From the UHGV virus genome UHGV-0139000: DNA of 41,137 nt; one strand, written 5' to 3'. The stretch comes from a virus. Numbering within the stretch: the first letter of the stretch is position 1; each line of letters opens with the position of its first letter. The translations under genes and the position numbers were made by a program. This document shows positions 29,014 through 33,989 of the stretch, piece by piece. Under the pieces are notes generated by a model. It did no database searches. It was not told the origin of the DNA and worked only from the letters and a program-made list of their open reading frames with translations.

Positions 29014-29133
29014 TGCTTTCACCTCATACAATTTTAGTGGTATTTAGCAACAACAAACGAGGTTTGTCAAATACAACAAAAATTGTTTTTAATGTGGGTA
29101 TACACATTAATACAACCCAGAAGGACTAATCCC
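29014..29133. promoter_or_regulatory. divergent cro/cI promoter-operator region
   Basis: Contains the operator-like dyad atacaa-N6-ttgttt (29071..29088), palindrome caaac-gag-gtttg (29054..29066) and an extra atacaa half-site (29110..29115). Confidence 0.55.
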
Positions 29134-29757
29134 ATGTCTCTCGCAGCCCGTTTTAAAGCACGTCGTTTGGAATTAGGAATGACTCAAGTGGAAGTAGCGA
29201 ATTCTGCAGGGGTTAGCCAACAATCCATAGAATCCATCGAAAGTGGACGAACCAGAAAGCCACGCAATCTTCTGGATCTGGCTAAGGCCTTGAAATGTAG
29301 CCCAGACTGGCTACTGAACGGTAAAAATATTATGCCTCTCGCGGAGATAAGTACCAGACGCATACCTATATTAAGTTACGTTCAGGCAGGAGAGCTTACA
29401 GAAGCAAGAGACATAACAGATCTGACAGGGGAATTTGAATATATTTTGGCAGACTCTGACATTCCAGAAACATGCTTCGCATTACGTATTGATGGCGACA
29501 GCATGCAACCAGAGTTTAAAGAAGGAGACATTGTTATCATCGATCCTGATCTATGTCCTGCACCAGGGGAGTTTGTTGTCGCCAAAAACGACGGTCACGA
29601 AGCTACATTTAAAAAATACCGTCCATTAGGAATCGGCATCGACGACTTTGAATTAATCCCCCTAAATCCTGATTACCCTATTTTTCGTAGTGCAGATATG
29701 AACTTACAGATCATAGGTGTAATGATCGAACACCGTATTTACCGCCGTAAACGTTAG
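29134..29757 (+). CDS. CI-type repressor with LexA-like S24 autopeptidase domain
   Basis: N-terminal HTH (MTQVEVANSAGVSQQSIESIESG); Ala-Gly cleavage site in SYVQAGEL; C-terminal domain with GDSM (Ser) and FKKY (Lys); AGGA 8 nt before the ATG. Confidence 0.85.
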   Translation: MSLAARFKARRLELGMTQVEVANSAGVSQQSIESIESGRTRKPRNLLDLAKALKCSPDWLLNGKNIMPLAEISTRRIPILSYVQAGELTEARDITDLTGEFEYILADSDIPETCFALRIDGDSMQPEFKEGDIVIIDPDLCPAPGEFVVAKNDGHEATFKKYRPLGIGIDDFELIPLNPDYPIFRSADMNLQIIGVMIEHRIYRRKR

Positions 29758-29775
29758 TATTCCCACCGTAAATAT

Positions 29776-29795
29776 CGGGAGGCGTAACAGCCTCC
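29776..29795 (+). terminator. hairpin immediately after cI (weak terminator candidate)
   Basis: gggaggc-gtaaca-gcctccc, 7-bp GC-rich stem; only a weak T tract follows. Confidence 0.35.
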
Positions 29796-29883
29796 CTTAC
29801 CCCATTTGTAAAGTCTTACAAATTAAATTCACTTAAATATCAATAAAGTAGTATTCACACCCCACAAAATACCACATTTGTGG

Positions 29884-29912
29884 TTTACACAATACAACTC
29901 AAATTGTATCTT
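29884..29912 (+). promoter_or_regulatory. early (PL-like) promoter overlapped by a perfect operator palindrome
   Basis: -35 tttaca (29884..29889), 16-nt spacer, -10-like gtatct (29906..29911); operator atacaa-ctcaaa-ttgtat (29892..29909) matches the 29071..29088 site at 17 of 18 positions. Confidence 0.5.
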
Positions 29913-30079
29913 TAGCCACAAGTCGAACGGCGCGACTCTAAACCATGCGTCGGGACCGTGGCGGGACAGGATGTCGGCAATACGGGTCAGTAAGTTCCCT
30001 TTGGGGTGCGGCGAAGCACTGTCTACTGATACAAGTCGAAGCCGCCGAACCACCAAAGTGAACTGAATGAGGAAACGGC

Positions 30080-30274
30080 GTGAAAACGTATAAACCGCTC
30101 AAAGGTGAATGCCCTGCTTGCCAAACACAGCTTCAGACACCAAAGCCAAAACGATACCAAATCAACGAATGTTATGAGCACTGCCCTGGATGTGGTGCTT
30201 TCCTGCATACCATTGCAACGCACTGGCGTGTCCGCTTCAACCTTGTGGTACCACGTACGCACAATACCAACTGA
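30080..30274 (+). CDS. small Cys-pair zinc-ribbon-like protein (64 aa), first early gene
   Basis: GTG start with GAGG 7 nt upstream; CPAC...CPGC pairs; followed by an intrinsic terminator. Confidence 0.5.
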   Translation: MKTYKPLKGECPACQTQLQTPKPKRYQINECYEHCPGCGAFLHTIATHWRVRFNLVVPRTHNTN

Positions 30275-30305
30275 ATCATCCATGTAATTGCTGTGTGTAG
30301 TCTTT

Positions 30306-30331
30306 GCCCGCCGCAAGTGACGGGCTTTTTT
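30306..30331 (+). terminator. rho-independent terminator after the first early gene
   Basis: gcccg-ccgcaagtga-cgggc followed by tttttt. Confidence 0.6.
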
Positions 30332-30390
30332 ATGTCTGAAAGCGCACTCGCAACAGCGCGCTCCCCGATATGAAAAAAGGAATACAACCG

Positions 30391-30540
30391 ATGAAACCTG
30401 AACACCTCTATCGACTGACGGGGCGCGATGTTCTCCGTTATCGCCGTAAAAACTTCGATTTGATGACCGGTCTGGCCGTTGCCACTGCGCTCGGTCTGAT
30501 CATCACTTTCATTCTCCTTGTAGCGAGGACCACAGTATGA
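30391..30540 (+). CDS. small membrane protein (49 aa), below the ORF-track length cutoff
   Basis: ATG at 30391 with AAGGA 10 nt upstream; [49 protein letters not shown] (basic N-terminus, C-terminal helix); stop overlaps the next ATG (ATGA). Confidence 0.4.
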   Translation: MKPEHLYRLTGRDVLRYRRKNFDLMTGLAVATALGLIITFILLVARTTV

Positions 30541-31439
30541 GTTTAGAAACCAGTCTCGAACTTAATAATCAACTTCTGGCACAACATAATGCGCTGCTTG
30601 AACGTCTTATCCGCACGATGGCATCAGGTATTGTTATGCATCCTGACACGATTTCACGAGTGCAGGAATGTCGGGATACAGCAACTGAAACTGAAAATAT
30701 GTCAGCGGCAATGACACTGGATGATCTGGAGTTCAGCGACGTTATCGCACTGGCTGGTTTCTACCCGGTAGCCACCCCTATCACAGAAGACATGCTGCAA
30801 CGTGCTGTTGCCTACCGTGATGCTGAAGGCGATAAACGAGTAGTTCAGATTGATGCTCTCGACAGCGCATTGCAGGGCGTCAAACGAGCCAGGGCACTGC
30901 ATAAACCCGCTCTTCTGGACCTGTCCCGTAACATTCTTAAGTTCTGGGACGACCTGCCAACCATCGGCGAGCGACGTGCTTTTGCCGAGCAACTACTTGA
31001 TGCACCTGCAGATGGGCGTGATGAAGTTAAGCCGAAAAAGGCCAGTAACAAAGATGGAGAACGCACGGGGCCGTTTTACGTCAAAAATGTATCCGGCACA
31101 GCAGCCAGTGAACTCCACACCTTACGCAAGTTGAACGAGATGCTTAAAAAAGGCCATATCGAGATCAACCGTGTTGAGTACCTTCAGCTGCAGGAAGAAT
31201 TTGCACGCAGAGACGCAGCAAATTCCAGCCAGAATAATGACGCCAAAGATGACCATACAATTGATTTCGCTGCACTACGCAAACAAGCTGAAGGGTTGAT
31301 CCTCCAGTTAGCAAAAGGGGGTTACCGGGCAGAAGCTATTGCAATTCTGGAAAAACAGGGAGCCAGGAAACTTGGTGAAGTAACGGATGAAAATCTCGCT
31401 GAAGTAATCACCCTGGCTGAAAAAGCACTGGAGGGTTAA
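30537..31439 (+). CDS. hypothetical early protein (300 aa)
   Basis: Operon position before the nuclease and polymerase genes; no motif recognised. Confidence 0.55.
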
Positions 31440-31441
31440 TC

Positions 31442-32743
31442 ATGCCAGACGTTCATGCACAACTTTCTCCATCATCAGCGCATCGATGGATGCGCTGCCC
31501 AGGAAGTCTGGCGCTGGAGGCCACACAACCGGATAAAGAAACAACTTTTGCAATCGAGGGCACTGCAGCGCACGCGCTTGCTGAAAAAGTTCTACGAAAC
31601 AGGCAAAGCCACCCGGAACACTACGCCGGATGCAATGTTTCTATGTTTCTCGGCTCATACCCCCTTCGCGAAAATCCTGATGATACATCTGGCCCACAGG
31701 TGGATGATGAAATGGTCGAAGCCGTTGGCCGGTATGTTGATACGGTCTGGACTCTTGCACAGAATAATGAACTATTGGTTGAACAACGTGTTGATTTCTC
31801 ACATATAACGGGGGTGGAAGAATCTTTCGGAACTGCCGACGGCATAATCATCGCTGGTAACGAATTACAAATCCACGACCTGAAATATGGCAAAGGCGTC
31901 CGCATTGATGCAGAACAAAATGAGCAACTACAACTGTATGCTCTGGGTGCGCTCGAACAATTCAGCATGCTGTATGACTTTGAGACTGTAAGATTATTTA
32001 TTCACCAGCCAAGGCTCAACCACGTTTCAGAATGGTCGTTAACCGTGCAGGAACTTCAGTCTTTCGGTAAACGAGCACAGGAGGCCGCAACCAGTGCGAT
32101 CCTTGTTCTCAATATTGCTGAATGCGAAGGCATTGAGACACTACCGCTGGAAAACTTCATACCTGGAGAAAAACAGTGCCGCTTCTGTAAAGCAAAAGCT
32201 ATTTGCACTGCCCAGAAAATGCAGCATTTACAAACAGCGGCCAGCGACTTTGAAGATCTGACAAAGCCTGTCAGCGAAATAATCACCAATGCCAGCGCAC
32301 GTGTACCTCTGTTAACCATTGAGCAGCTTGCGGAGATCTATAGCCAGGCCGACTTTATTGAGTCCTGGCTAAAGGCAGTACGGGACCGGGTTCACAATGA
32401 ACTCAATGCCGGACATCCGGTACCGGGGTTTAAACTGGTAACAGGAAAACAAGGTAACCGGGCCTGGAGTGATGAAGAGGCAGCTCGCGCACTTCTGAAG
32501 GACCAGTTCAGGTACAAAACTGAAGAAGTATTCGACTTTAAACTTATTAGTCCCACAAAAGCCGAAAAACTTATCAAAAAGGCCAGTCCACGCCGTTGGT
32601 CAAAAGTCGAGGCACTGATAACACGAGCTGATGGTAAACCAACCGTCGTTCCCGAGTCAGACCCACGCCCCGCACTCAATATCAACCCTGTAAATGATTT
32701 CGACGACGTATCCGACGATACGCTAACCGCAGACCTCATCTGA
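31442..32743 (+). CDS. PD-(D/E)XK family nuclease (Cas4/RecB-like, DUF2800-type)
   Basis: N-terminal [14 protein letters not shown], central IHDLKYGKG motif and C-terminal Cys cluster ([10 protein letters not shown]); typical companion of phage PolA modules. Confidence 0.65.
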
Positions 32744-32758
32744 TTTAAGGAAATACCC

Positions 32759-33307
32759 ATGAAACTGAAGCTGAACAATGTTCGTCTGGCCTTCCCGTCT
32801 CTGTTTGAAGCTAAAACTGTAAACGGCGAAGGCGATCCGCGTTTCTCCGCAGTATTTTTAATGTCTCCCAAACACCCACAACTGGAAGAAATCCGTAAAG
32901 CTATGAAGCAGGTAGCGAAGGAAAAATGGGGAGAGAAGTGGGAGCCCATTTATAACCAGCTGGAGAAAAAACTCAATCTGTGCCTGCATGATGGTGATGA
33001 AAAAGCAGAGTATGAAGGCTTCCCCGGCAATTTCTTCCTGAATGCTGCTAACAAAGCGCGCCCAGCTGTTCTTGATCGCGATCGTTCGCCACTTATTCAG
33101 GCTGACGGACGTCCTTATGCAGGGTGCTATGTAAACGCCGTTATCGATATCTGGGCACAGGACAATAATTTCGGTAAACGCATTAATGCCTCACTCGGCG
33201 GAGTCCAGTTCCTGCGAGACGGCGATGCATTCGCTGGCGGCGGAGTGGCAAGCGCTGACGATTTCGACGATATCAGCGAAGGTGCTGATGCTGAAGCACT
33301 AATTTAA
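32759..33307 (+). CDS. ssDNA-binding-like protein (DUF2815-type) of the replication module
   Basis: 182 aa directly after the nuclease; assignment from recalled family and synteny. Confidence 0.5.
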   Translation: MKLKLNNVRLAFPSLFEAKTVNGEGDPRFSAVFLMSPKHPQLEEIRKAMKQVAKEKWGEKWEPIYNQLEKKLNLCLHDGDEKAEYEGFPGNFFLNAANKARPAVLDRDRSPLIQADGRPYAGCYVNAVIDIWAQDNNFGKRINASLGGVQFLRDGDAFAGGGVASADDFDDISEGADAEALI

Positions 33308-33359: not shown

Positions 33360-33989
33360 TCACTCAGGAATCTTAATCTTTCTCAATTCTTTATTTAGTT
33401 CACAGATCTTTTTCTTAGACGGGAAAGTATCATACATCCAAAAACCAACAGTCTCTAAAACTATTATCATAACCATATACACAAGATAATTTAAAAGGCC
33501 TTCATTTTGCCCTATGGAAATAATGCAGATAATAGAAAAAAGGGTAAACAGCACAAAACACAGAAAGGAAAACAGACGACTAATAATAAATAAAAAACCT
33601 GAAAAATCAACATTAATAAAAAACACTCCGTTATCTTTCTCTATATAATTCTGAAGCTTAATCAACTGATTTATATACTGTCTTTTTTCTAATCTATTGC
33701 AAATGTAAATAACATCTCTTCGGTTATAAGAGGATTGCAATTTCAGCGCATCACGAATAATTTTATCATTTATTCTTTTTTCTATGGCTTTCTTATCCTC
33801 CTTATCCAGATAACGTTCATACTTAATTAAATATAAAATTAACTTCTTGACATATTTAGGCTCTTTATACTTATAATTAAAAATAATCTTTCTTATCCAG
33901 ACTCCCATAACAATCAAACATGAAAAAATATATCCAGCTATTTTCTCCAGATGCTCTGTATGGTCAATCAAGTATTGGATCATATGCAT
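33360..33989 (-). CDS. membrane protein (209 aa), antisense AT-rich insert in the replication operon
   Basis: One N-terminal and two C-terminal hydrophobic helices with a Lys/Glu-rich central region; strongly AT-rich codons; opposite strand to all neighbours; stem-loop at 33325..33343 on its 3' side. Confidence 0.6.
   Translation of the reverse strand: MHMIQYLIDHTEHLEKIAGYIFSCLIVMGVWIRKIIFNYKYKEPKYVKKLILYLIKYERYLDKEDKKAIEKRINDKIIRDALKLQSSYNRRDVIYICNRLEKRQYINQLIKLQNYIEKDNGVFFINVDFSGFLFIISRLFSFLCFVLFTLFSIICIISIGQNEGLLNYLVYMVMIIVLETVGFWMYDTFPSKKKICELNKELRKIKIPE

Follow-up and report, generated by a model that had tools for sequence, protein, structure and literature searches.

In phage HK022, the transcript of the put (polymerase utilisation) site alone binds the β' zinc-binding domain of its own RNA polymerase and suppresses pausing and termination without a phage protein (PMC9378689). 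HK022 carries the sites putL and putR, and its left operon has the order PL-putL-nun-terminators; put-like elements with the same architecture of two stem-loops are found in HK639, HK75 and phiEt88. Phage lambda has the N protein and a nut (boxA/boxB) site. Both N and HK022 Nun are products of a small first ORF that lies past PL and a leader RNA and is followed by a terminator.

Three further groups of elements are relevant for comparison. RNase E matures the host small RNA RprA at GA|AUU to an abundant, Hfq-stabilised and functional species of ~50 nt (PMC5222698), and RprAproc has been described as 'the last 47 nts' of RprA (PMC9262595). AgvB and AsxR (PMC4104026) and StxS (PMC7547250) are short Hfq-binding RNAs located at conserved terminator positions by moron cassettes, in prophage operons under antitermination control. 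The Mu gp6 family (PF26833) comprises proteins of 60–76 aa with a CPxC-x20-CPxC pattern, encoded in an early non-essential region.

Here we describe a locus in the UHGV virus genome UHGV-0139000 (41,137 nt, hereafter the window) that combines features of these systems. It is the leader of a PL-type early operon in a temperate enterobacterial phage with a DUF2800/DUF2815/DNA polymerase A module. As in HK022, a putL-type element stands directly past a PL-type promoter, with a small accessory gene and a terminator next in line. Unlike HK022, the phage is not a classical lambdoid, DUF2800, DUF2815 and DNA polymerase A being encoded in its PL operon.

Organization of the early operon

About 3% of the complete E. 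coli genomes contain a prophage of this family. Its opposite operon encodes a VapE primase, Q and lysis genes. The features of the locus, in the order of their coordinates in the window, are as follows.

29083–29757, + strand: CI-like repressor gene with HTH and peptidase S24 domains (Pfam Peptidase_S24, 2e-21; HTH_3, 1e-12)
29777–29796, + strand: hairpin GGGAGGC-gtaaca-GCCTCCC without a T-run, 3' of the repressor gene, read from the sequence
29884–29912, + strand: predicted PL-like sigma-70 promoter (-35 TTTACA, 17 nt, -10 TATCTT), from a promoter scan
29892–29909: operator, a perfect palindrome ATACAACTCAAATTGTAT that overlaps the -10 of the PL-like promoter
29921–29996, + strand: HK022-type put RNA with two stem-loops (blastn, covariance model, covariation)
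30003–30079, + strand: conserved 5' junction of a cassette slot, including a Shine-Dalgarno sequence GAGGAA
30080–30274, + strand: ORF64, a 64-aa zinc-ribbon ORF (CPxC-x20-CPxC) with a GTG start and a TGA stop
30286–30331, + strand: mature-RprA-like module (RNase E-type site UA|AUU, block 30286–30309, hairpin 30306–30325, T6 30326–30331)
30391–30540, + strand: 49-aa predicted membrane protein (phrog_11981, 1e-36), the first conserved gene past the terminator
30537–31439, + strand: 300-aa protein, first of the replication-type genes (PGAP annotation of CB9615, gene list of L004)
31442–32743, + strand: DUF2800 nuclease (same two sources)
32759–33307, + strand: DUF2815 ssDNA-binding protein, followed by the DNA polymerase gene (same two sources)

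The repressor gene is co-directional with the early operon, like lambda cI relative to PL. Its PGAP start is at 29134, and it is annotated as 'LexA family protein' in CB9615. The hairpin at 29777–29796 is possibly the end of the immunity transcript, judging by its position and sequence. Palindromes of the family ATACAA-N6-TTGTAT occur as operator-like copies at 29026–29086, in the divergent cro/cI region, and at the PL-like promoter, which is consistent with one repressor governing both early promoters. The analogy with the N/tL1 position of lambda that was drawn in the preliminary description is therefore apt, in that a cI-like repressor, an OL/PL-like promoter, a small gene, a terminator and read-through genes follow in the same arrangement; the closest counterpart is HK022. 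The same description had placed a 64-aa protein with two Cys pairs first after a repressor-controlled promoter, and this is borne out by the GTG ORF at 30080–30274 and by the operator palindrome lying on the -10.

A promoter scan revealed nothing better than chance between the terminator and the DUF2800, DUF2815 and DNA polymerase genes, so the replication genes would need transcription to read through the terminator. Between the DUF2815 and DNA polymerase genes, an AT-rich ORF of 209 aa with hydrophobic segments (33360–33989, minus strand) has the annotation 'hypothetical' in CB9615 and resembles a further accessory insertion of the moron or defence type.

In all E. coli genomes listed, the 630-bp interval 29758–30390 has no PGAP annotation, and hence none of the three elements (put RNA, 64-aa gene, RprA-like module) shows up in RefSeq annotation.

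A put element in a non-classical phage

A sensitive blastn search of positions 29760–30380 against phage records matched 29908–29992 to the annotated 'putL: antiterminator RNA' of HK022, HK75, O276 and HK639, with 79–84% identity, and also matched equivalents without annotation in phiEt88 and several P22-like phages. The alignment of eight elements has 27 invariant columns, with the conserved blocks CGAACGGC.CG, GG..AGGA.G and G.CAAT in this order. With a home-made covariance model built from these eight elements, the element in the window scored 86.6 bits (E 7e-24). The same model found no second copy equivalent to putR in the whole window, so that the phage has one put copy as compared with two in HK022. 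A search of Rfam against the window at gathering thresholds returned nothing, and the put element matched no Rfam family even at E<=5.

Stem-loop II differs from that of HK022 putL by compensatory changes. GAGC/GCUC is replaced by GACC/GGUC, an internal C-G pair by U-A and, in the upper stem, GUUCA/UGAAC by GACA/UGUC with one base dropped per side, a paired deletion that leaves this stem a base pair short of its HK022 counterpart. The bulge of the lower stem, which is U68 in HK022 and needed for antitermination there, is a G here. Among 11 distinct sequences, 94.1% of the cells form standard pairs, compared with 25–44% in slid controls, 12 of the 19 pairs have changed on both sides and none of 500 shuffles reached the observed values, in an alignment that was fitted to the model and thereby favours structure.

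The position relative to the promoter is also similar. The element starts a few nucleotides past the predicted transcription start (~29919), and the core CGAACGG begins at 29924, leaving 11–12 nt from the end of the -10 at 29912; in HK022/O276 (L002) the -10 ends at 2505 and the core starts at 2517, a gap of 11 nt. In a comparison with an Enterobacter bugandensis prophage, put is 100% identical with no substitutions and the promoter region is nearly invariant, while the flanking repressor gene is saturated at synonymous sites (pS 0.74).

By sequence and predicted structure, the region 29921–29996 is a clear homologue of HK022 putL. It appears to be a new member of the put class on a non-classical phage backbone, and it may already figure in the put survey of King et al. 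2011. By analogy with HK022, it would provide a sufficient, protein-independent route past the terminator located 310 nt downstream.

An alternative leader in related prophages

For the distribution of leaders, a census used the downstream 49-aa gene as its anchor, and not the feature itself, and covered 71 IMG/VR relatives with enough upstream sequence. The put element was found in 19 relatives and a different, boxA-type leader in 49, and the two are mutually exclusive; the other three relatives have neither. In this respect the family differs from HK022, many sister prophages having a boxA-led leader instead of put.

In the put-less sister prophages, the leader is a highly conserved sequence of ~175 nt at the same place (L007, 1268–1460; also L009–L014 in E. 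coli). It begins with an rrn-type boxA GCTCTTTAACAA and contains three GGTAAGC motifs and a terminal GC hairpin. No Rfam family matched this leader. It may represent another leader that causes antitermination in cis. A boxA of the GCTCTTTAACAA type is absent from the leader in the window, and the window has no nut (boxA/boxB) site of the lambda type.

The terminator hairpin

The hairpin at 30306–30331 consists of the stem GCCCGCC (30306–30312), the loop GCAAGT, the complementary arm GACGGGC (30319–30325) and T6 (30326–30331). Five GC pairs are followed by a mismatch and one further pair, and then by U6. We consider it an intrinsic terminator by the sequence criteria of a GC-rich hairpin and a U-tract, and would expect it to be active as such. 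The preliminary description had called it a strong hairpin-plus-T6 terminator: the hairpin and the T6 are real, whereas 'strong' is an overstatement for a structure with a folding energy of -9.4 kcal/mol, as 17/200 shuffles fold as well. Given this moderate stability, some read-through may occur even without put. The hairpin was missed by a consensus terminator scan because of its internal C.A mismatch.

The terminator stem is conserved in all relatives, the loops being variable, and covarying stems are observed (GCCCGTC/GGCGGGC, GCCCCTC/GAGGGGC). The terminator is part of the conserved backbone and separate from the cassette that precedes it, and its stem is homologous to the working terminator of host rprA.

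A second hairpin, AGCGC...GCGCT, is located at 30343–30365, between the terminator and the 49-aa gene. In the minimum free energy fold, the U-tract of the terminator also pairs with a downstream GAAAGC. According to this fold, the second hairpin and the U-tract pairing could constitute an alternative structure that acts on termination or on translation of the next gene.

A terminator module similar to mature RprA

In a permissive scan of Rfam, the sole significant match was to RprA (RF00034) at 30226–30335, with 48.2 bits (E 2e-5 to 7e-5). A full-length RprA can be rejected, as this score is below the gathering score of 70 and the 5' stem-loop and most of the seed are missing; model positions ~62–108 alone align with high confidence. 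The similarity is concentrated in a 24-nt block AATTGCTGTGTGTAGTCTTTGCCC (30286–30309), which is identical to E. coli rprA at 24/24 positions. A blastn comparison of the whole module with annotated rprA of about 5,400 E. coli genomes gave 82.6% identity over 46 nt. In the terminator stem, one A-U pair is replaced by G-C, a compensatory change, and a second pair, U-A, by the C.A mismatch. The loop differs as well, with GCAAGU in the phage RNA and UCCCAC in host RprA.

The identity between phage and host begins exactly at the RNase E +1 of RprA, and the A+1U+2U+3 context is retained as UA|AUU. The 5' stem-loop of RprA, most of its seed and the region pairing with rpoS and narP are absent from the module or not conserved. 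A remnant of the seed, AUCCCCUGA (CCCCUGA), is kept in many sister prophages; in the window this site reads CCAACUGA, a change explained by its overlap with the end of ORF64 (final codons and stop codon). Sequence comparison thus identifies 30286–30331 as homologous to the matured 3' form of RprA, that is, to its last ~46 nt. The module shares with this form the 24-nt block, the terminator hairpin, the U-tract and the RNase E context, but it is the 3'-terminal part of an mRNA or leader, not a stand-alone gene with an Rcs-controlled promoter.

A census of 94 relatives that also used the downstream gene as its anchor found the block in 91 (~97%): it is exact in 68, has one substitution in 20 and an indel in three, and three relatives lack it. 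The module (ATTGCTGTGTGTAGTCTTTGCCC, hairpin, T-run) also recurs in unrelated phages. In the N4-like Erwinia phage Ea9-2 (L022, 700–747), it has the same 5' boundary and is located right past the stop codon of thymidylate synthase. Another temperate phage family has the module in over 40 contigs (L036, 3050–3165): just downstream of a CI-like repressor gene, a distinct 5' domain of ~60 nt and the module, as 3' half, make up an element of ~110 nt. Further contexts were found in IMG/VR (L028, L050, L056, L074, L142), none of which is a true rprA gene, and 29 places on E. coli plasmids also have the module. Literature searches for RprA-like elements in phages found nothing, and the RprA-like terminator module is apparently unreported.

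The role of the module can be read in two ways. It has somewhat short of an even chance of being a terminator only, of the tL1 type, captured from the host or recombined among phages, with no role as a small RNA or in Hfq binding. This would fit with the RprA seed that pairs with mRNA (nt ~31–50; PMC5861431, PMC9262595) being largely missing here, and a good terminator could plausibly be exchanged horizontally as a unit. Within the window, no complement of the RprA-like block of 10 nt or more was found, and 9-mers occur at chance level. In addition, put should suppress termination at the module; if it does so efficiently, few transcripts would end at T6, and a U-tailed RprA-like RNA lacks a clear source. 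On the other hand, the 20 nt on the 5' side of the hairpin are unneeded for termination, yet they are identical to host RprA in 68 of the 94 relatives and differ at one position in 20 more, and the hairpin loop and stem vary while this 20-nt block stays. Moreover, in four or more unrelated contexts the 5' boundary of the block coincides exactly with the RNase E +1, and mature RprA is itself an abundant, Hfq-stabilised and functional species (PMC5222698).

We tentatively suggest, although with considerable doubt, that several unrelated phage lineages (this prophage family, the second temperate family with its own 5' RNA domain, and N4-like Erwinia phages) carry a copy of mature RprA whose cleavage at |AUU releases an Hfq-bound mimic, and that this mimic reprograms or titrates the host circuitry of RprA, RpoS, biofilm and NarP. 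As part of the same tentative reading, the copy in temperate phages would usually be the first terminator of the early operon. Such a module would resemble AgvB, AsxR and StxS in belonging to a prophage operon under antitermination control. In contrast to them, it belongs to an early operon and copies the mature form of a host small RNA; AgvB, AsxR and StxS lie beyond PR' and Q, and none of them copies a core-genome small RNA.

A variable cassette slot upstream of the terminator

Leader and terminator are separated by a slot whose junctions are conserved. Its 5' junction (30003–30079) also precedes an unrelated 64-aa ORF in two relatives (L009, L008), and the 3' junction begins right past the stop codon. 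The slot contains ORF64 in the window, the unrelated 64-aa ORF in L009 and L008, a 68-aa ORF in L013 and, in others, a gene of 174–189 aa on the opposite strand (L010, L011, L012, phage vB_EcoM-606R2); it is empty in L034, L088, L111 and others. A moron cassette would be present or absent at one fixed site with conserved junctions and have its own promoter and terminator. At the slot, presence/absence polymorphism and conserved junctions are observed, a promoter scan detected no promoter of the cassette's own, and the terminator is that of the backbone.

The opposite-strand gene replaces ORF64 in many relatives (L010, 1383–1907; L011, 1320–1889; L014, 1820–2389; all on the minus strand), and its 5' end abuts the RprA-like block.

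Among the 71 relatives, an ORF64-like gene was found in eight, seven with put and one with the boxA-type leader, and 12 relatives have put without ORF64. All four combinations of put or boxA with and without ORF64 exist, so that leader type and cassette assort independently. The terminator and downstream genes are the same in relatives without ORF64. From this comparison, ORF64 is dispensable for the architecture and is probably not part of the antitermination machinery.

The zinc-ribbon protein ORF64

ORF64 is preceded by the Shine-Dalgarno sequence GAGGAA at 30069–30074, 5 nt upstream of its start. Its cysteines are C11 and C14 (CPAC), C31, and C35 and C38 (CPGC). A word-indexed search of 5.8 billion proteins yielded three close relatives only, and a HMMER search of 1.84 billion representatives gave three matches with E<1e-10, two of them at 61% and 48% identity. 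All homologues down to 48% identity retain C11, C14, C35 and C38, C31 being variable, and the motifs KPLKG, KPxRY and IATHW are kept over the same range, including in an unrelated genomic context (L020). An antisense ORF of 97 aa at 30023–30316 was rejected (dN/dS 1.55).

It is improbable that ORF64 is not a gene and that put and the terminator are separated by an untranslated spacer only. In favour of a spacer, ORF64 has no PGAP call in the genomes listed and only three close relatives among 1.84 billion representative proteins, and its dN/dS of 0.26, calculated against the Enterobacter bugandensis copy, is just moderately low, being much weaker than in the neighbouring genes (0.01–0.02) and with some other frames not far behind (0.34, 0.47). 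However, this value is the lowest of the six frames, the Shine-Dalgarno sequence is good and properly spaced, and the conserved CxxC cysteines and motifs, a confident structural model (pLDDT 83.6) and a 94% hhalign probability to Mu-like gp6 all argue for translation. We conclude that ORF64 is a real protein-coding gene and an optional early cassette.

An AlphaFold (AF2) model based on five sequences is a five-strand zinc ribbon with no helix. Sequence and fold searches of the PDB returned generic zinc ribbons only, such as a LysW-type ribbon; fold matches in BFVD were phage proteins without characterisation, and DksA/TraR appeared in neither database. Candidate assignments of ORF64 to TraR/DksA, N-like proteins or the IS66 zinc finger were rejected, as the matches were sub-threshold and driven by CxxC. 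Compared with Nun and N, the beta zinc ribbon ORF64 has neither sequence nor fold similarity, lacks an arginine-rich motif and is optional in its family; there was no match to the N family.

The homologue with 48% identity (P0005) has a precomputed Pfam match to PF26833 (Phage_Mu_gp6), and hhalign of the ORF64 family against SfMu gp6 gave a probability of 94% (E 1e-7) over 46 columns with 22% identity, a very distant likeness that rests largely on the Cys motifs. Pfam scans run here on members of the ORF64 family, P0005 included, gave no match to PF26833, and tblastn of ORF64 itself found no Mu-like phage. On the profile comparison, ORF64 is tentatively best described as a distant Mu-gp6-like early protein, and it probably binds a host or phage macromolecule.

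A metagenome contig (L019, 226–480) encodes the homologue with 61% identity, followed by ATCATCCCTGTAATT and, past it, by a different pre-terminator sequence and the hairpin GGCCCG...CGGGCC with T6. This indicates that the RprA-like module can diverge. In two genome scans, comparison of this pre-terminator sequence with RprA of another genus gave nothing or chance-level matches.

It is very improbable that terminator read-through needs ORF64, be it as an early antiterminator other than N or as a polymerase-binding factor of the TraR/DksA type. ORF64 does hold the N/Nun position, no gene of the operon being translated before it, and the fold confidently predicted for it, the zinc ribbon, is one that often binds RNA polymerase or nucleic acids. 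Yet a complete put RNA stands upstream, 63 of the 71 relatives, all of which share the terminator and the downstream genes, do without ORF64 (12 of them with put, and the slot is sometimes empty), and five family members gave no match to PF01258 (DksA/TraR) at E<=1, with an all-beta model and fold matches to a LysW-type ribbon and phage proteins. The antiterminator role and the TraR/DksA likeness raised in the preliminary description are thus not upheld, and at the comparative level read-through appears independent of the protein.

Proposed model of early operon regulation

We regard as likely an order of promoter and operator, put RNA acting in factor-independent antitermination, an optional zinc-ribbon cassette, an RprA-like terminator and the replication genes. 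The model is based on the sequence and structural homology of put, the promoter geometry, the optionality of the ORF and the RprA homology; we infer from it the antitermination and terminator activities, the production and function of an RprA-like RNA and the function of the protein.

Upon loss of the repressor, transcription would start at ~29919, and the first ~75 nt would fold as an HK022-type put RNA. By analogy with HK022, this RNA would stay on the β' zinc-binding domain of its own polymerase and make it resistant to pausing and termination. The modified polymerase would pass the hairpin and T6 at 30306–30331, with expression of the replication genes, whereas an unmodified polymerase would stop there, leaving them silent. 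The zinc-ribbon gene, an optional accessory cassette in a nun-like slot, would be translated from the conserved Shine-Dalgarno sequence. From transcripts that end at the terminator, cleavage at UA|AUU would probably release an Hfq-binding RNA of ~45 nt that mimics mature RprA.

Implications

If ORF64 is an accessory Mu-gp6-like zinc ribbon and not an antiterminator, effort can shift to its binding partner. Were the mimic reading correct, it would be a case of phage mimicry of a processed core-genome small RNA, during induction or lysogeny, and if the module is processed like the host RNA, phages would supply, in mature form, a small RNA that acts globally in stress and biofilm. About 3% of sequenced E. 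coli would then carry a second, unannotated source of RprA-like RNA, which would cross-map in RNA-seq, Hfq-CLIP and RIL-seq analyses. The natural swap between put and the boxA-type leader could reveal another cis-acting antiterminator. As judged from homology, protein-independent put antitermination would extend beyond the classical lambdoids to a widespread prophage family of the DNA polymerase A type.
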